The notes below the pieces were generated by a model that did no database searches, was not told the origin of the DNA, and saw only the letters and a list, made by a program, of their open reading frames with translations. A stretch of 64,000 bases of DNA from Sediminibacterium sp. (GTDB taxonomy: Bacteria; Bacteroidota; Bacteroidia; Chitinophagales; Chitinophagaceae): assembly GCA_016786865.1 (NCBI GenBank), contig JAEUVE010000018.1:124947-188946 (forward strand). The letters run 5' to 3'. The translations under genes were made by a program, and so were the position numbers. Positions 18,227 through 56,211 of this stretch are shown in pieces (the stretch's first letter is position 1; each line of letters begins with the position of its first letter).

Positions 18227-20689
18227 ATGAAGCAAATATTTTTTTTCATTTTCCTGTTCATAGCAGGAACTGCACAAGCCCAGCAAACTGCCTCCCGTGA
18301 GAAACCAAAGTTGGGGATTATTGTAGGTAACCTCGTTGAATACAGCTCGGGCAAGGCAGTTTCTTATGCCAGGGTCGATCTGTATCACCACAGTTCGGAT
18401 ACCGTGCTGGTATCTACGATTTCCGACAAAAACGGTGCATTTGAATTTAACGGGCTTGGGTTTGGTTATTTTTCCCTGGTAGCCAGATCAATGGGACTTG
18501 CAGATACCCGGCTAGACAGTATTTATCTCCGCGCCGACCGGTACGATTTTAATATCGGCGATCTTAAAATGAAGGAGTCCAGTAATGCACTGAACGAAGT
18601 GATTGTGTATTCGGAAAAACCCCTGATCGAAAATAAAGACGATAAGCTTACCTACAATGTAGGAGAGAGTGCGCTGAGCAGCGGTTCCAGTACTGCAGAA
18701 ATTCTGAAGAATATTCCCCTCATCAACAACGATCCCAATGGCAAGATTCTACTGAAGGGAAAGGAACCCAAGATCCTGATCGATGATAAGCCTACGGAGC
18801 TGAATGCGCAACAGTTGCAGGACTTACTGGAGAGCTTGCCGGGGAGCAGTATCGATAAAGTGGAAATCATGAGCAATCCTCCTCCCCAATATGCAACGGA
18901 AACAGGTGGGGTAATCAATATCATTACCAAAAAAGGGAAGATAGGCTGGGTAGGGAGAGTGAACCTCAGTGCCGGTACCCGGGGTGAAGGCAATTTTTCC
19001 ACCAATATCAGTTACCGGAATAAAAAGATTTCCCTGAACCAATCCATTGGAATGGGGGCTAGTAAAATCGGAGGACACAGCTACAGCAACCGGCAAAATT
19101 TTTACACAGATTCTTCCAATTATTTCAATACCACCGGTTCGTTCCTCAATAAGAATCTTCGCCCTAATCTGCGTACCCAGCTGGATTATGAAATGAATAA
19201 GAACAATCTGGCCGGCCTGGTATACCAGGGTAACCTGAATCTTTTCGATAACAAGAGCAACAACAGCTACACCAATCTGAACCGTTTTGGTGAAGTATAC
19301 AAAATCAGTACCCGCGACAACGAAAGCAAGGGTAATGGTTATACCCATGCACTGACCCTGTCTTATACATATAAGGGGAAGAAGAATCTGGCCGAAGTGT
19401 TACGGCTTATCTTGTCCGGCAATATCAGTAAAAACGACAACGACCGGGATTTCTTTCAGCAGTTTCTGAATCCCGGGTACATACCCACAGGTATTGATTC
19501 TGTGCAAACGCAGTATTTTAATTCCAAAAACCGTTCTGCCTCTGCAAGACTGGAGTATACCAAGCCGCTGCGGCTTAAGGGCAGCAGTTTTTCCGGAGGT
19601 GTTTCCTATCTGTTGTCGGACTATCACAATTACCTGAATACGGCTTTTCAGAGAAAGTCCGATGGGGTACTGGTGCCCAATGACCTGCTCAGTAACGATT
19701 TTTTCTTTGTGCAAAATATCTTCACGGCAAGGGGAGGATTCAGTTTCCTTTTTCCGGGCAATATCCGCCTTACCGCCGGTGCACAGGCAGAGCAAACCTC
19801 CATGTCTTTTGATTTTATCAAGGGCAATGTAAGCAATGTGAAAAATGAGTACTGGAACATTCTTCCCAACGCCACCCTACGCAAAGAGTTCGATAAAACA
19901 CTGAATACATCACTTGTATACAGAGCTACCATCCGCAGACCGGGCATCAATGAACTGAACCCCAATGTAGACTACGGCGACCCCTATAACCTTCGCTTTG
20001 GTAATCCCTTTCTCCTGCCATCACTATCGCATAATTTCGATTGGAACTTCAGCTGGATGAAGGGTAAATATTACATCAATACCTCTCTTGGATTTAATAA
20101 GGTCAAGAATGTATTCAACAATATCCGGACACTTGCAGATGGGGGTAAAACGCAGATTACCTGGCTCAATATCGCCGACAGAAATGAATACGAAGCAAGT
20201 GCATTCGGAGGATATACTTTTACCAGGGAATTCAGGATGAATGCAAGTGTGGGCTATACCTTTAACGAATACAGCGAAAGGGAAAAGCAATTGTACAACT
20301 ACAGAAACGGAGGCACTTTTTATACCAGTGTAAACTATACTTTCACACCCTCCAATGTCTGGAACTTTGAAGGATCTGCCCGCTACAACAGCTTCGCCAA
20401 TCCGCAGGGCAGAAGCAGAAGTAATATCAATCTGAACCTGGGTGTGCAGCGAAAATTCTTTGACAGGAGACTGATACTTGCATTCAATGTGGTAGATCCG
20501 TTCACGCCCCAACAGTATGTAACTGTAACCAACGGACAGCGGTTTACGGTGGAGAGTTTTAATGCTACCAGTACCCGTAACTACCGGCTTTCTGTGAGTT
20601 ATCAGCTGAACCGGCTGGTACAGAAGAGTAACCTGAACAACCGGGAAAAGGAACAGTTGCTAAAGAAACTGAAGACGCCCAAAACTTAA
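18227..20689 (+). CDS. Outer-membrane beta-barrel protein (TonB-dependent-receptor-like, with carboxypeptidase-regulatory-like and plug domains)
   Basis: Signal peptide; plug motifs L.NIP....D.NG.I.L.G, ILIDDKP, IDKVEIMSNPP.QY...GGVINIITKK; RPGINELNP...Y.DPYNLRFGNP.L.P barrel motif. Start taken at ATG 18227. Confidence 0.85.
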   Translation: MKQIFFFIFLFIAGTAQAQQTASREKPKLGIIVGNLVEYSSGKAVSYARVDLYHHSSDTVLVSTISDKNGAFEFNGLGFGYFSLVARSMGLADTRLDSIYLRADRYDFNIGDLKMKESSNALNEVIVYSEKPLIENKDDKLTYNVGESALSSGSSTAEILKNIPLINNDPNGKILLKGKEPKILIDDKPTELNAQQLQDLLESLPGSSIDKVEIMSNPPPQYATETGGVINIITKKGKIGWVGRVNLSAGTRGEGNFSTNISYRNKKISLNQSIGMGASKIGGHSYSNRQNFYTDSSNYFNTTGSFLNKNLRPNLRTQLDYEMNKNNLAGLVYQGNLNLFDNKSNNSYTNLNRFGEVYKISTRDNESKGNGYTHALTLSYTYKGKKNLAEVLRLILSGNISKNDNDRDFFQQFLNPGYIPTGIDSVQTQYFNSKNRSASARLEYTKPLRLKGSSFSGGVSYLLSDYHNYLNTAFQRKSDGVLVPNDLLSNDFFFVQNIFTARGGFSFLFPGNIRLTAGAQAEQTSMSFDFIKGNVSNVKNEYWNILPNATLRKEFDKTLNTSLVYRATIRRPGINELNPNVDYGDPYNLRFGNPFLLPSLSHNFDWNFSWMKGKYYINTSLGFNKVKNVFNNIRTLADGGKTQITWLNIADRNEYEASAFGGYTFTREFRMNASVGYTFNEYSEREKQLYNYRNGGTFYTSVNYTFTPSNVWNFEGSARYNSFANPQGRSRSNINLNLGVQRKFFDRRLILAFNVVDPFTPQQYVTVTNGQRFTVESFNATSTRNYRLSVSYQLNRLVQKSNLNNREKEQLLKKLKTPKT

Positions 20690-21198
20690 GAGGCCAGGTT
20701 GGGCAGTCTGGTTTTCAGCCAGCTGTTTTGAACGGGCACCAGCCAGTCGTTCATCAGCATTTTTTTAGTGGTGATCAGGTTGTTAAAATACAAGGTATCG
20801 GGCTTAATAAAGCCATTTTCCATCGCATAGCTGAGTTGGGTCAGTGGCAGGATTTCAACTTTGTCTTTTACAATAAAGCCAAGGCTTTGTCTGTCGAGAA
20901 GATTTACGTTGAACTTTTGTTCTATTTCTTTGATCATCCGGATCGACTTGTCTGCACTGGAGCCGCAGAGGCGGTCGGTGGAGTCGTCTGCCATCAGTAT
21001 AATGAACTGGCCAAAAAACAGGTTGGCATAACCCTTAATCAGCGACCCATGGCTTTCCCATCCGGCTATAAAGTCTTTCAGGATTTCCTCTATTTCAAAT
21101 GCTTCTCCAATGCTGAACATCCGGTTGCTCTGGTACACCCAAACCCTGGAGTTTTCGTGAAAGTCTGCCGGAATATGTTGCTGGTATTGTAAGTTCAT
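20686..21198 (-). CDS. Conserved Bacteroidota hypothetical protein (homologues often mis-annotated as ABC transporter ATPase)
   Basis: SRVWVYQSNR, W.SHG, FIILMADD, LLDR, YFNNLI..K..L...W..P...SWL; no Walker A motif. Start taken at ATG 21198. Confidence 0.75.
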   Translation of the reverse strand: MNLQYQQHIPADFHENSRVWVYQSNRMFSIGEAFEIEEILKDFIAGWESHGSLIKGYANLFFGQFIILMADDSTDRLCGSSADKSIRMIKEIEQKFNVNLLDRQSLGFIVKDKVEILPLTQLSYAMENGFIKPDTLYFNNLITTKKMLMNDWLVPVQNSWLKTRLPNLAS

Positions 21199-21208
21199 AG
21201 TTGTTGTT

Positions 21209-21988
21209 TTATTGCATACTTGCAGCAATCATTTCTGCCACATCTAATACAGCTACTTCGTTTTCTTTTTCCCTGTTTTTGATTCCGTCGGTCATCATGG
21301 TATTGCAGAACGGACAGGCTGATGCAATGAATCCTGCGCCTGTTTCCAGGGCTTCATCGGCTCTTTCGATGTTGATACGCTTGTTGCCGGGTTCATCTTC
21401 CTTGAACATTTGTGCGCCGCCGGCGCCGCAACACAATCCGTTGCTTCTGCAACGCTTCATTTCCACCAGTTCTGCATCGAGGGCTTCCAGCACTTTTCTA
21501 GGCGCCTCGTAAATATCGTTGGCCCTTCCCAGGTAACAGCTGTCGTGGTAGGAGATCTTTTTACCCTTGAATTCACCACCTTCCTTCAACTTAATTTTTC
21601 CTTCATCAATCAGCTGCTGCAATAAGGTGGTATGGTGTAATACTTCGTAGGTGCCACCCAGTTCGGGGTATTCGTTTTTGAGTGTATTGAAACAGTGCGG
21701 ACAAGTAGTTACGATTTTTTTGATACCATAGCCATTCAAAACCTGTATGTTCTGGTATGCCATCATCTGGAACAGGAACTCATTGCCAGCTCGGCGTGCG
21801 GGATCTCCTGTACAGGCTTCTTCCTTACCCAGTATGGCAAATTTCACGCCCACTTTGTCCAGAATGGTGGCAAATGCTCTGGTGATTTTTTGTGCGCGCT
21901 GGTCAAAACTGCCTGCACATCCAACCCAGAACAACACTTCGGGTGTTTCTCCGGCTGCCATCATTTCCGCCATTGTATTGATCTTCAT
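21209..21988 (-). CDS. CCG-domain Fe-S protein (HdrD/GlpC-like, C-terminal half of FadF/EtfD)
   Basis: WVGC, CTGDPARRAG, CPHC, YHDSCYLGR, CCGAGG, CPFC: two cysteine-rich CCG domains. Confidence 0.88.
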   Translation of the reverse strand: MKINTMAEMMAAGETPEVLFWVGCAGSFDQRAQKITRAFATILDKVGVKFAILGKEEACTGDPARRAGNEFLFQMMAYQNIQVLNGYGIKKIVTTCPHCFNTLKNEYPELGGTYEVLHHTTLLQQLIDEGKIKLKEGGEFKGKKISYHDSCYLGRANDIYEAPRKVLEALDAELVEMKRCRSNGLCCGAGGAQMFKEDEPGNKRINIERADEALETGAGFIASACPFCNTMMTDGIKNREKENEVAVLDVAEMIAASMQ

Positions 21989-22016
21989 AAATATGATTTA
22001 TAGTTTTTCAGATAAA

Positions 22017-23333
22017 TTAAGAGGCCATTTCGGTAGCCCATCTGTCGCGCTCATCCGGAGAAAACTTCCAGGGCGCAAAATTATTTTCAATATTGCTGAA
22101 TGTGCCGTTCCATTCCTGTGGTGCATTGCTCTCTTCCATAATCAGTGATCTGCGCAGTTCCATGATAATATCCAGCGGAGCAATGCTTACCGGACAGGCT
22201 TCCACGCAGGCATTGCAGGTAGTGCAGGCGCGCAGTTCTTCTACCGTAATGTAATCGTGTAGCAAGGATTTGCCATCGTCCTGGTAGGTTTTATTCAGGT
22301 TGATGTTTCTGCCCACGTCTTCCAGCCGGTCGCGGGTGGCCATCATGATTTTACGTGGACTCAGCAGTTTGCCGGTAAGGTTGGCCGGGCAGGAAGCTGT
22401 ACATCTGCCGCATTCAGTACAGCTGTATGCATCCAGCAGGTTTTTCCAGCTCAGATCAAATACATCTTTTGCACCAAAACTGGCCGGAGGAGCAGCATCT
22501 GCAGGCATTAGTTCCGGCTGCATAGCATAAAGTACTTCGTTTTGAACGGCGGGCATGTTTTTGAGCTTGCCCTGCGGCTCCAGCCGGGCATAGTATGCGT
22601 TGGGGAAAGCCAGTATAATATGCAGGTGCTTGGAATAGGGGAGGTAGTTTAAGAAAATAAAAATACCAATGATGTGCAGCCACCATGCACTGCGTTCGAT
22701 GCCAACCAGTGTTTCATCGGAAAATCCGTTGAAAAGCGGAGTAAGCATATCAGAGAAAAAGAATGCACCGGTAGTATGGTAGTGCTCCGCTCCGCGGCCC
22801 TGTAAAACCTGATCGGCAGCATTCATACAGAGAAACAGGCTCATCAGCACAATTTCAGTGAACAGGATATAATTGGCATCACTGCGAGGCCAGCCATTCA
22901 GGTCTTTGCTGATGAATCTTTTGAGTTTGATCAGGTTTCTGCGGATCAGGAAAATCACACAGACAACAATTACGCCTACAGCCAGTAATTCAAAAAAATT
23001 AATAAGCCAGGTATAGGCACTGCCTAAAACCGGCAGAAAAAGCCGGTGTGTACCCAGAATACCATCCAGTACAATTTCCAGTACTTCTATGTTGATGATG
23101 ATGAAACCAGCATAAACCACCAGGTGCAGTAAAGCCACCAGCGGGTTTTTAAACATTTTTTTCTGTCCCAGCGCCAGCAAAATCAAGTTGTTCCATCGTT
23201 TGCCGGGATCGTTGGAGAGATCTTCTTTCTTTCCAAGCAGGATGTTGCGCTTGATTTCTCCGGCTTTTCTGGCAAACAGAAAACTGCCGATTACAGCCAG
23301 AACCAGGAACCCGATTTGAGGTATATAATGCAT
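22017..23333 (-). CDS. Membrane-bound 2x[4Fe-4S] oxidoreductase (N-terminal half of FadF/EtfD)
   Basis: Several TM helices with His residues (LLHLVVY, WWLHII, SKHLHII); CTECGRCTASCP and CTTCNACVEACP ferredoxin motifs; NPWK-like NFAPWK. Confidence 0.88.
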   Translation of the reverse strand: MHYIPQIGFLVLAVIGSFLFARKAGEIKRNILLGKKEDLSNDPGKRWNNLILLALGQKKMFKNPLVALLHLVVYAGFIIINIEVLEIVLDGILGTHRLFLPVLGSAYTWLINFFELLAVGVIVVCVIFLIRRNLIKLKRFISKDLNGWPRSDANYILFTEIVLMSLFLCMNAADQVLQGRGAEHYHTTGAFFFSDMLTPLFNGFSDETLVGIERSAWWLHIIGIFIFLNYLPYSKHLHIILAFPNAYYARLEPQGKLKNMPAVQNEVLYAMQPELMPADAAPPASFGAKDVFDLSWKNLLDAYSCTECGRCTASCPANLTGKLLSPRKIMMATRDRLEDVGRNINLNKTYQDDGKSLLHDYITVEELRACTTCNACVEACPVSIAPLDIIMELRRSLIMEESNAPQEWNGTFSNIENNFAPWKFSPDERDRWATEMAS

Positions 23334-23431
23334 ACGAAACAGTTATACCGCTAAGATAGCAATTAAAGGCTTGCAGGAACCAATTGTTGATTGCATTTAT
23401 TGTTGTTATTTTTGGTCATTAAACCATCACG

Positions 23432-23932
23432 ATGTCCGAAAAAAGATATATTCTGACCGCAGCAGAGGCTGCCCAGAAATTACACCGCATGAGCCTGCAA
23501 CTGGCAGAAAATCTGAGTGGTAATAATGCGCCGGTAATACTCGTAGGTATCCGGAAAAACGGCGTGGTGCTGGCTGCCAAAATTGAAGCCCTGCTGAAAC
23601 AATATATTCACAATTCGCTCCAAACCATTTCGCTGCAGATGGACAAGCAGCATCCGGTTTCGGTTGAGTTGAGTGCACCGGTGGAGCTGAACGGGGCCAA
23701 TGTTGTTTTAATCGATGATGTGGCCAACAGCGGCAAAACCATGCTTTATGCGCTGAAACCCCTGCTGGAATATCATCCATATTCCATTCAGACCATGGTA
23801 CTGGTAGAGCGGATGCACAAGCTCTTTCCGGTGAATCCGGACTATGTTGGCTTGTCGCTGGCTACTACCAAGGAAGATCACATACAGGTAGAAACGGAGG
23901 GCGGAGAAGTGACCGGTGCATTTGTGCTTTGA
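23432..23932 (+). CDS. PyrR-like phosphoribosyltransferase
   Basis: ILVGIRKNG, VVLIDDVANSGKTM PRPP-binding motif, HK.FPV.PDYVG; TATTTTTG promoter box at 23407-23414. Confidence 0.8.
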   Translation: MSEKRYILTAAEAAQKLHRMSLQLAENLSGNNAPVILVGIRKNGVVLAAKIEALLKQYIHNSLQTISLQMDKQHPVSVELSAPVELNGANVVLIDDVANSGKTMLYALKPLLEYHPYSIQTMVLVERMHKLFPVNPDYVGLSLATTKEDHIQVETEGGEVTGAFVL

Positions 23933-26750: not shown

Positions 26751-27260
26751 ATGTCTAAGCCGGCTAAAATAAAACCACTGAAAACCAAACCCGGAGGGAC
26801 TTCTTTGCGGGGTGGCGGTGTGTTGTCTATTGTAAGAGAGCCGGCATCGGGTTATGCAGCCAGCACAACCGCAAAGGTTCCCGGCGAAATGACCGGATTT
26901 GAGAAAATGGTTGTATTGGAAGGCGGGCTTTCCAAGAACGATCTTGTACAGCTCAAAGAGAAATCCGGATTAGGATATGATCAACTGGCCGATGTGCTTT
27001 CCGCAGCAAGAACTACTTTAATCAATAAGAAAGGAACAGCGCGCTTCAGCAGGGACCTCAGCGAGCGGATATTGAGCCTTGCAGATATCTATTCTTACGG
27101 ATATAAGGTATTTGAAGAAGTGGATGCATTCAACCAATGGATTGATACGCCCAATGCAGCGCTGGGCGGTAAAAAGCCTTTTGACCTGCTCAATAACCAG
27201 TTCGGAAGAGAAGAAATCAAAAGTCTGATCGGCCGCATCGAATACGGCGTTTATTCCTGA
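26751..27260 (+). CDS. Xre/MbcA/ParS-family antitoxin
   Basis: Central HTH-like region, SERIL, C-terminal W...PN.ALGG..P.DLL...GREEI...IGRIEYGVYS. Confidence 0.9.
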   Translation: MSKPAKIKPLKTKPGGTSLRGGGVLSIVREPASGYAASTTAKVPGEMTGFEKMVVLEGGLSKNDLVQLKEKSGLGYDQLADVLSAARTTLINKKGTARFSRDLSERILSLADIYSYGYKVFEEVDAFNQWIDTPNAALGGKKPFDLLNNQFGREEIKSLIGRIEYGVYS

Positions 27261-27269
27261 TTCCTTTTT

Positions 27270-27725
27270 ATGATTGTATATCGAGTATCCAAAAAGCAAT
27301 TTGCTGCAGATCTCACCGGGGAAGGGGCGCGGCTTTTTGGCGGCCGCTGGAATCATATACATACGGGCTGCCTGTACACATCCGCTTCAAGGGCGCTTGC
27401 ATTGCTCGAGTTTTCCGTGAATGTAAACAGGATGTTGGCACCTAAAAGCCTGAGTCTGGTGGCCATAGAAATTCCGGAGAAAAATATTCTGAAACTGCAA
27501 ATAACAGATCTTCCGGAAAACTGGCAGGATGTTCCCGTGCCAGGATCAACCAGGGATTATGGTACCGGATTGCTGCGTAAGGCCCAACACAGTGTTATTG
27601 CCATACCTTCTGTAGTTGTTCCGGAGGAATACAATTATCTGTTGAATCCATTGCATAAAGATCATGGAAAAATCCGCATTATGGCAATCAGTGAGCTCGG
27701 TTACGATGGAAGAATTAAAAACTAA
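27270..27725 (+). CDS. RES-domain toxin
   Basis: IVYR, GEGARLFGGRWN, LYTS.S.ALALLE, IPSVVVP.E.NYLLNP.H; starts 9 nt after the antitoxin. Confidence 0.92.
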   Translation: MIVYRVSKKQFAADLTGEGARLFGGRWNHIHTGCLYTSASRALALLEFSVNVNRMLAPKSLSLVAIEIPEKNILKLQITDLPENWQDVPVPGSTRDYGTGLLRKAQHSVIAIPSVVVPEEYNYLLNPLHKDHGKIRIMAISELGYDGRIKN

Positions 27726-55020: not shown

Positions 55021-56211
55021 ATGGCTGCCAGAACAGATCTATTCCAATCTCCCGATTATTTGCTGATCGACGAATTGCTTACCGAAGAGCACCGACTGAT
55101 CCGTGAGTCTGTTAGAAACTACGTAAAGAAAGAAATTTCTCCGATTATCGAAGATTATGCACAGCGTGCAGAATTTCCTCAGCATATCGTGAAGCAATTG
55201 GGCGACCTAGGTTGTTTTGGACCAACCGTTCCGGAAGAATATGGTGGGGGCGGTCTGGATTACATCAGTTATGGTTTGATGATGCAGGAACTGGAGCGTG
55301 GCGACAGTGGTGTAAGAAGTACCGCAAGTGTGCAGGGTAGCCTGGTGATGTATCCGATTTATGCATACGGAAGCGAGGAGCAAAGAAAGAAATACCTGCC
55401 AAAACTGGCATCCGGTGAATGGCTGGGATGCTTTGGTTTAACAGAGCCCGATCATGGTTCTAATCCTGCAGGTATGATCACCAATATCAAAGATGCAGGT
55501 GATGGCAGGCACGTGATTCTGAACGGTGCAAAAATGTGGATCAGCAACGCCCCGTTTGCACAGGTAGCAGTTGTATGGGCCAAAAACGAAGAAGGTAAAA
55601 TTCAGGGATTGATAGTTGAAAGAGGAATGGAAGGATTTACCACACCAACCACACACGGAAAATGGAGCCTTCGTGCAAGCGCTACCGGAGAGTTGGTGTT
55701 CGACAATGTAAAAGTGCCTAAAGAAAATATTTTACCCAATGTAATTGGCTTAAAAGGACCGTTGGGTTGTTTGTCCAAAGCCCGTTACGGTATTGCATGG
55801 GGTGCGCTGGGTGCTGCAATGGACTGCTACGATACTGCACTGCGTTATAGCAAGGAGCGTATTCAGTTTGATCGTCCGATCGGAGGATTTCAACTGCAAC
55901 AAAAGAAACTGGCCGAAATGATTACCGAAATCACCAAAGGTCAATTGCTGGTATGGCGTGTAGGTGTGCTGATGAACGAAGGACGGGCTACCCCGGCTCA
56001 GATCAGCATGGCCAAGCGCAACAGTTGCGAAATTGCCACCAATATTGCCCGCGATGCACGTCAGATGCTGGGTGGTATGGGTATTACCGGAGAATACAGT
56101 ATTATGCGTCACATGATGAACCTGGAAAGTGTAATTACTTACGAAGGAACTCATGACGTACACTTGTTGATCACCGGTATGGATATTACCGGAATGAATG
56201 CATTTAAATAG
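55021..56211 (+). CDS. gcdH: Glutaryl-CoA dehydrogenase (acyl-CoA dehydrogenase family)
   Basis: ELERGDSG.RS..SVQGSLVM, GCFGLTEPDHGSNP, LNGAKMWI, SLRASATG, AR.GIAWG, MMNLESV.TYEGTHDVH; TAATTTTG box at 54981-54988. Confidence 0.88.
   Translation: MAARTDLFQSPDYLLIDELLTEEHRLIRESVRNYVKKEISPIIEDYAQRAEFPQHIVKQLGDLGCFGPTVPEEYGGGGLDYISYGLMMQELERGDSGVRSTASVQGSLVMYPIYAYGSEEQRKKYLPKLASGEWLGCFGLTEPDHGSNPAGMITNIKDAGDGRHVILNGAKMWISNAPFAQVAVVWAKNEEGKIQGLIVERGMEGFTTPTTHGKWSLRASATGELVFDNVKVPKENILPNVIGLKGPLGCLSKARYGIAWGALGAAMDCYDTALRYSKERIQFDRPIGGFQLQQKKLAEMITEITKGQLLVWRVGVLMNEGRATPAQISMAKRNSCEIATNIARDARQMLGGMGITGEYSIMRHMMNLESVITYEGTHDVHLLITGMDITGMNAFK

Follow-up and report, generated by a model that had tools for sequence, protein, structure and literature searches.

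Two consecutive genes on the reverse strand of a 64,000-nucleotide stretch of the genome of Sediminibacterium sp. (positions 124,947 to 188,946 of contig JAEUVE010000018.1, assembly GCA_016786865.1; this whole stretch is referred to as the window) code for proteins of 438 and 259 amino acids, which we call EtfD-N and EtfD-C. A first-pass annotation of the locus had seen in them candidates for the two halves of an electron transfer flavoprotein (ETF):menaquinone oxidoreductase, the enzyme known as EtfD or EMO, which is established by genetics in Mycobacterium tuberculosis and Mycobacterium smegmatis, by biochemistry in Syntrophus and by structures dating from 2025-2026.

The Pfam matches of EtfD-N are solely to 4Fe-4S dicluster families (residues 296-384), in a region that includes two CxxCxxCxxxCP motifs (residues 305-316 and 370-381), and EtfD-C matches PF02754 in two stretches (E 1e-33). 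The two 4Fe-4S motifs read in the first gene and the two CCG domains read in the second by the first-pass annotation are thus borne out, as are the transmembrane helices of the first gene product, since its structure model has five long ones; the "His pairs" also mentioned there amount to three histidines that are conserved (H70, H220 and H238) and a nearly invariant H236. Against NCBIfam, the two proteins match HdrC, SdhB, TfrB, LdhH, GlpC, DsrK and other families, all far under the curated cut-offs.

Match to EtfD/EMO and conservation of the cofactor ligands

In a sequence search of the PDB, chain A of 9OJN, the EtfD of M. smegmatis (1042 residues), is the sole strong match for each of the two proteins. 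Residues 27-337 and 365-435 of EtfD-N align to residues 31-333 and 407-477 of EtfD (phmmer, E 3e-38), and residues 17-257 of EtfD-C to residues 496-744 (phmmer, E 5e-78); the runner-up matches are the heterodisulfide reductase (Hdr) subunits HdrC (E 1e-5) and HdrB (E 5e-8). Both halves match the same chain in the right order, an agreement well beyond what chance would give, and the pair therefore covers EtfD as far as the point where its disordered tail begins. The domain order of EtfD/EMO (membrane domain, ferredoxin domain, two CCG domains) is kept across the pair. The characterised members of the family are single polypeptides, which is not the case here, where two open reading frames (ORFs) lie 28 nt apart; this layout is a variant of the EtfD/EMO family and no evidence against homology.

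The ligands of the EtfD cofactors, taken from the structure paper (PMC13083937), were located in two alignments, one of 83 rows (21 split and 62 fused relatives) and one of 44 homologues of the N half. The axial ligands of haem b, His78 and His241 in EtfD (His87 and His251 in the enzyme of Syntrophus aciditrophicus, SaEMO), correspond to H70 and H238, which are invariant in the 44 N halves and are found in 82-83 of the 83 family rows. The arginines that contact the haem propionates, Arg137 and Arg306, correspond to R132 and R310, and the aromatic residues of the menaquinone site, Phe85 and Phe230, to F77 and F227. The eight cysteines of the two cubane [4Fe-4S] clusters (C305, C308, C311, C315 and C370, C373, C376, C380) are invariant, and R131/R132 and R310 are likewise invariant among the 44 N-half homologues.

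In EtfD-C, the ligands of cluster D1, which is a linear [3Fe-4S] cluster in EtfD (C503, C538, C581, C584, with T539), correspond to C24, C59, C96, C99 and T60, and those of the non-cubane cluster D2 (C637, C672, C673, C709, C712 and H583) to C151, C186, C187, C225, C228 and H98. All the positions named so far are invariant or nearly so in the 21 split and 62 fused relatives. The catalytic features of Hdr are swapped as they are in EtfD: Thr60 stands at the position of the extra cysteine, and His98 completes D2 in place of the bridging cysteine. Judging from these motifs, the CCG clusters of EtfD-C would be a linear [3Fe-4S] D1 and a non-cubane D2. The pair is collinear with EtfD in the alignment that the first-pass annotation had proposed, and none of the haem-ligand histidines or CCG cysteines is out of register with EtfD: all are aligned and conserved.

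The AlphaFold2 model of EtfD-N, built on 44 homologues (predicted local distance difference test, pLDDT, 89.1; predicted template modelling score, pTM, 0.86), has long helices at residues 4-31, 64-93, 105-135, 148-179 and 206-233, and short ones after the first and the fourth transmembrane helix. This pattern is the published EMO topology, which consists of five transmembrane helices with short ones after I and IV. When the model is compared with the PDB using Foldseek, 9OJN is again the sole significant match (E 1.2e-14, TMq 0.77; next E 0.04).

As for the number of haems, the third membrane histidine, H220 (H223 in M. smegmatis, H233 in Syntrophus), is present in 21 of the 21 split rows and 54 of the 62 fused rows. 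In SaEMO, H233 holds the distal one of twin haems (preprint 10.64898/2026.08.18.745454). The EtfD of M. smegmatis has the equivalent H223 yet binds no distal haem, so that H220 does not predict the haem content.

The features of the locus are collected in Table 1. The genes that surround the pair in the window are unrelated housekeeping genes (thioredoxin-like, outer-membrane barrel, phosphoribosyltransferase, phosphoglucomutase, PCMT and an Xre/RES pair). The latter, at 26751-27725 (+), is an ordinary toxin-antitoxin pair, in which the gene of an Xre-family antitoxin (PF09722/PF20432) precedes that of a RES-domain toxin. Scans of positions 20300-23700 for sigma-70 promoters and terminators returned no more sites than in shuffled sequence.

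Table 1. Features of the split EtfD locus and the glutaryl-CoA dehydrogenase gene, in window positions
Feature	Position	Strand	Description
EtfD-N subunit (P0001)	22017-23333	(-)	438-aa ORF; NarI-like five-helix membrane domain (haem b, predicted) and 2x[4Fe-4S] ferredoxin domain
Spacer between the halves	21989-22016	(-)	28 nt; site of the ancestral interdomain linker
EtfD-C subunit (P0002)	21209-21988	(-)	259-aa ORF; two CCG domains
P0392	20686-21198	(-)	170 aa, soluble; starts 10 nt past the EtfD-C stop codon
Glutaryl-CoA dehydrogenase (GcdH)	55021-56211	(+)	phmmer against solved GcdH structures

Split and fused forms in the Bacteroidota

A phylum-wide sample comprised 151 genomes of Bacteroidota with a completeness of 90% or more, 38 of them from the class Bacteroidia; the N and C parts are present in exactly the same 88 genomes. 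The gene is split in 36 of these 88 (frames of ~430-490 and 259-304 aa), namely in 34 of the 38 Bacteroidia and in two genomes of one Rhodothermia lineage, and fused in 52, where both parts are encoded by one frame of 650-760 aa. The split carriers of this sample include Flavobacterium, Chryseobacterium, Cryomorphaceae, Crocinitomicaceae, Roseivirga, Mucilaginibacter-like organisms and Saprospirales/Chitinophagales; Cyclobacteriaceae, Arcicella and Emticicia are further examples, so that the split form covers the orders Flavobacteriales, Cytophagales, Sphingobacteriales and Chitinophagales. Carriers of the fused gene belong to the Ignavibacteria, Rhodothermia, Chlorobiaceae and Chloroherpeton. 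A second sample was made of 201 Bacteroidia genomes, two of which (G228 and G297) are unpublished and can be left out with no change in the counts. The C half is found in 186 of them, and every listed frame (~150) is 259-326 aa long. The two-gene EtfD is the standard form of the class Bacteroidia and no peculiarity of this organism.

The distant fused homologues of Chloroherpeton and the Chlorobiaceae are next to or near etfA. Among 31 Chlorobiaceae genomes, eight have such a fused EtfD-like gene, 4-5 kb from etfA, and 22 have a gene of the ETF:quinone oxidoreductase (ETF-QO) type (PF05187); the two were never found together. Chloroherpeton and one relative have both, an EtfD-like gene beside etfA and an ETF-QO-type gene.

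The origin of the split was examined in a maximum-likelihood tree of 83 full-length or concatenated EtfD/EMO proteins, 21 of them split. The 21 split forms make up one side of a branch, so that one change suffices, and this branch lies inside a well-supported clade (98) that also contains seven fused proteins from metagenome-assembled genomes (MAGs) named "Chitinophagales bacterium"; the clade itself lies within the fused forms of Bacteroidales, Rhodothermia and Ignavibacteria. This nesting of the split forms among fused proteins makes the fused form ancestral, and the simplest reading is that the split probably arose by a single fission of an ancestral fused gene. In the 696-aa fused sister, residues 3-435 align to residues 4-433 of the N half and residues 438-696 to residues 1-259 of the C half; the fused sister reads through the linker, where the split genes have a stop codon, 28 nt and a start codon. 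Judged from these sequences, the fission is a clean cut in the interdomain linker, the equivalent of residues ~479-495 of EtfD. The split genes of the Rhodothermia lineage nest in a Saprospirales-like group and the relatives of that lineage carry the fused gene, which suggests that the operon was acquired horizontally.

A phosphoribosyltransferase gene is found a short way upstream of the enzyme gene both in the window (23432-23932, +) and in a MAG with the fused sister (locus L130, 2981-3505). This synteny, common to split and fused loci, supports their orthology.

Once separated, the two halves have drifted to various extents. Among 80 related loci of the Chitinophagaceae type, the N half is at most 100 nt upstream of the C half in 21, separated from it by an insert of 0.4-6.4 kb in 28 (among L011-L083), and not found within ~8 kb of it in 15; in the rest the stretch upstream is too short to judge, and in one locus (L086) the N half is on the opposite strand. 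In some Chitinophagaceae (G001, G038 and G062) the distance between the halves is 114 kb or 490 kb, or the two do not share a contig. No shared transcript is therefore needed, and the two subunits must in these organisms assemble after separate translation.

The ETF pathway and the proposed function

The genome assembly (3.1 Mb, 24 contigs, 98.9% complete) contains adjacent etfB and etfA genes on contig 24. The best PDB matches of their products are the housekeeping ETFs of Paracoccus and human, by a small margin only, so that a non-bifurcating type is weakly favoured on this comparison. Four acyl-CoA dehydrogenase (ACAD) genes (PF00441) are present, among them the one at 55021, which the first-pass annotation had called glutaryl-CoA dehydrogenase, rightly so according to phmmer (E 1.5e-130 against the solved bacterial GcdH and 6e-128 against the human one). 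GcdH is likely an electron donor to ETF and hence to the split EtfD. Neither this genome nor the 38 Bacteroidia genomes of the phylum sample gave a match to ETF-QO (PF05187). Hence the two observations that the first-pass annotation had proposed to look for, etfBA without a canonical ETF-QO, were both made.

Regarding the acceptor, genes of the futalosine (Mqn) pathway are present: two PF02621 members (MqnA/D) and an MqnC above its cut-off, at C14:56557-57357, C2:66626-67351 and C1:40011-41042. The genome was also searched for the classical Men pathway, which we rejected as the source of menaquinone: MenA was not found, the best match to MenB is far under the cut-off, no proteobacterial UbiA is above cut-off, and the futalosine genes are present. 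Menaquinone is, as predicted from this gene content, made via the futalosine route. The genome also codes for a second protein with two CCG domains (239 aa), which stands alone after the lumazine synthase gene ribH on contig 9 (39295-40014), outside the EtfD system; no LutB/LutC-like partner adjoins it.

The clearest contextual link of the split enzyme with ETF and ACAD is the operon of a Rhodothermia MAG (genome G012, locus L007, 1310-6924), in which a divergent TetR gene is followed by six genes on one strand: ACAD, 4HBT thioesterase, etfB, etfA, N half and C half. The start of the N half abuts the stop of etfA, and a second genome of the same lineage (G039, L008) has the same adjacency of etfA and the N half.

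Several observations weigh against an ETF-dependent function or against parts of the history proposed above. Neither in this genome nor in the 80 related loci does the pair have an etf or ACAD gene within 8 kb. The co-occurrence itself speaks for a link with ETF, EtfA being found in 192 of the 201 Bacteroidia, together with EtfD in 183 (six genomes have neither), but these counts are to be read as a pattern and not as a statistical test, because the genomes are related and shared ancestry inflates the co-occurrence. Nine genomes have EtfA and no EtfD, which means that ETF can function without EtfD, perhaps as a bifurcating ETF; three have the split EtfD and no EtfA (assemblies of 80 to 400 contigs). 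As to the single fission, the branch that unites the split forms has a support of only 58% in the Shimodaira-Hasegawa-like approximate likelihood ratio test (SH-aLRT).

On balance, we consider that the two genes very probably code for a two-subunit EtfD/EMO, a predicted ETF:menaquinone oxidoreductase, because of the homology, the retention of every cofactor ligand, the fold that the N half adopts in its model, the partners found in the genome, the co-distribution with ETF and the operon linkage in relatives. That the pair is the route of ETF re-oxidation in this organism, as the first-pass annotation proposed, is supported by the homology, the ligands, the genomic partners and the co-occurrence with ETF, and the activity is a prediction from sequence. 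We infer that the subunits assemble, which way the electrons flow, how many haems there are and what accepts the electrons. In the mechanism that we propose, the ACADs, including GcdH, would reduce the soluble flavoprotein EtfAB, which would dock on the cytoplasmic 259-aa CCG subunit and deliver single electrons to the non-cubane [4Fe-4S] and/or the linear [3Fe-4S] cluster. The electrons would then move on, by way of the two cubane [4Fe-4S] clusters in the 438-aa subunit, to the haem b that His70 and His238 hold within the five-helix membrane domain, and would finally reduce menaquinone, itself presumably made by the futalosine route.

It could be argued that the pair is instead a generic module of the HdrDE/DsrMK type, which connects a thiol/disulfide couple, or some donor that is not ETF (such as lactate, glycolate or glycerol-3-phosphate), with the quinone pool. 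CCG and ferredoxin domains are indeed common to HdrB/C/D, GlpC, GlcF, LutA, DsrK and TfrB, some of which give weak matches in NCBIfam or the PDB, the databases name such genes "heterodisulfide reductase subunit D" or "(Fe-S)-binding protein", and no etf gene adjoins the pair here. We nevertheless find this improbable. The NCBIfam scores are far below the cut-offs for TfrB (131 bits against 385), LdhH (114 against 800), GlpC (60 against 278) and GlcF (25 against 333), as they are for HdrB, HdrC and HdrD, and the E value of the match to HdrB is 5e-8 compared to 5e-78 for EtfD. The catalytic features of Hdr are replaced exactly as in EtfD, by Thr60 and His98, at the positions that make the clusters non-catalytic according to PMC13083937. 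Moreover the pair nests inside the EtfD/EMO clade of the tree, co-occurs with ETF and is part of an etfBA operon in one lineage, and there is no GlpAB, LutBC or GlcDE partner near it.

Granting that the pair is an EtfD, one may ask whether it works mainly in reverse, from menaquinol to ETF and enoyl-CoA, or depends on the proton motive force (pmf) through a distal haem, as in the redox loop of the Syntrophus enzyme. The histidine of the distal haem of SaEMO is kept as H220 in all 21 split forms, and the transfer of electrons from acyl-CoA to menaquinone is thermodynamically tight. However, the M. smegmatis enzyme has the same histidine and no distal haem, the host lineage consists of respiring heterotrophs with GcdH and ACADs of the beta-oxidation type, and no membrane formate dehydrogenase partner turned up, although no search was aimed at one; we hold this to be slightly less probable still. 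As for the trivial explanation that the two ORFs result from an assembly error or a frameshift in one fused gene, the existence of fused relatives of 689-709 aa in related MAGs might speak for it, but the two-gene layout is seen in all 186 carriers among the Bacteroidia and its C-half frames have consistent lengths, and in many Chitinophagaceae the halves are separated by 0.4-6 kb or by more than 100 kb, or do not share a contig. A frameshift artefact is ruled out by such distances, and we give this explanation practically no weight.

The linked 170-aa gene, and comparison with known systems

The gene that follows the C half codes for P0392, a protein for which no match was found in Pfam (searched with the single sequence and with all 28 aligned members), NCBIfam, PDB sequence profiles or the ESM Atlas; database labels are "hypothetical protein" or, baselessly, "ABC transporter ATPase" (UniRef). 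Its model (pLDDT 92.7) is a beta-alpha-beta sandwich, for which the fold searches gave nothing above noise: the best hit of Foldseek in the PDB has an E value of 0.08, and the best Z score of a wide VIA-align search is 7.5, for a polymerase palm domain, which is within noise. W20, Y22, W47, H50, D71, G79, S81, D83 and R103 are invariant.

In at least 60 of the 80 related loci the C half is directly followed by a homologue of P0392. In the phylum sample, 23 of the 34 Bacteroidia that have the split enzyme carry one at most 1 kb downstream, on the strand of the C half; the linkage spans Chitinophagales, Cytophagales and Flavobacteriales. Where the N half has moved off, the homologue keeps with the C half in two of the three cases checked. 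It is found in 180 of the 201 Bacteroidia: 175 genomes have EtfD and P0392, 11 EtfD alone, five P0392 alone and ten neither. We considered that P0392 might be confined to the split enzyme and rejected the idea, since a genome with the fused sister (G151) has a homologue ~8 kb downstream, on the same strand.

On the basis of this conserved linkage, P0392 is a candidate accessory component. We suggest, quite tentatively, that the EtfD of Bacteroidia might be a three-component complex; P0392 could be a dedicated accessory subunit, an ETF-docking adaptor or a maturation factor, and might play the part that has been suggested for the disordered tail at the C terminus of the mycobacterial EtfD. The linkage and co-distribution of P0392 are new here, and single it out as a specific candidate for a further pathway component.

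In soil, fresh water and the sea, Bacteroidia are among the chief organisms that break down organic matter aerobically. Their quinone is menaquinone and no ETF-QO was found in those sampled, so that metabolic reconstructions have a gap between ETF and the respiratory chain. Present labels of the two genes are "(Fe-S)-binding protein", "heterodisulfide reductase subunit D" and even "succinate dehydrogenase iron-sulfur subunit"; naming them EtfD-N and EtfD-C would fill that gap across thousands of genomes. The natural split also offers a ready-made soluble CCG subunit for work on linear [3Fe-4S] and non-cubane clusters and on ETF docking. The picture of how the EtfD/EMO family works is unchanged, and the finding is well supported but expected; its practical value lies in annotation and in the experimental handle, the modestly novel lead being the linked 170-aa gene.

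The preprint 10.64898/2026.08.18.745454 cites earlier work that attributes EMO to every menaquinone-containing microbe growing on fatty acids. We found no description of a split EtfD in Bacteroidota or Flavobacteria in the literature within reach of our search, which did not extend to the 2021 PNAS phylogeny of EMO; the first-pass annotation likewise knew of no characterisation in Bacteroidota.

The split enzyme resembles the mycobacterial EtfD (MSMEG_0690, 9OJN, also called MsEMO; Rv0338c in M. tuberculosis) in its domain order, its membrane fold and all its cluster and haem ligands, and the host, like mycobacteria, uses menaquinone and has ETF without ETF-QO. Unlike that enzyme, it consists of two polypeptides, whose identity to EtfD is ~28% for the N half and much higher for the C half; it lacks the disordered C-terminal tail of ~30 kDa, which AlphaFold3 predicts to touch ETF in mycobacteria; and a conserved extra gene follows its C half. 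It belongs to the same family as the EMO of S. aciditrophicus, and has the same architecture and the same three membrane histidines. In SaEMO one chain binds three haems, the distal cluster is of the [4Fe-5S] type and the enzyme works in a pmf-driven reverse loop, whereas the distal-cluster motif of the window protein is of the mycobacterial type. In SaEMO, ETF docks via EtfB on the CCG (non-cubane cluster) domain, and the FAD of ETF sits near the CCG clusters (10.64898/2026.08.18.745454).

FadF of Bacillus subtilis and DgcB of Pseudomonas aeruginosa also combine membrane, ferredoxin and CCG domains, and are genetically linked to ETF-dependent catabolism; they are single polypeptides and lack the cysteines of cluster D1 (PMC13083937), all of which are present in the window protein. 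HdrDE of Methanosarcina is, like the pair described here, built of two subunits as a membrane enzyme that contains haem b, two cubane clusters and clusters of the CCG type, but it is cut elsewhere, HdrE being the membrane subunit alone and HdrD carrying the ferredoxin and CCG domains, and its clusters are catalytic and solvent-exposed, with a bridging cysteine, and its substrate is a heterodisulfide. Last, ETF-QO (PF05187) has the same role, the re-oxidation of ETF into the quinone pool, with an unrelated fold and unrelated cofactors.

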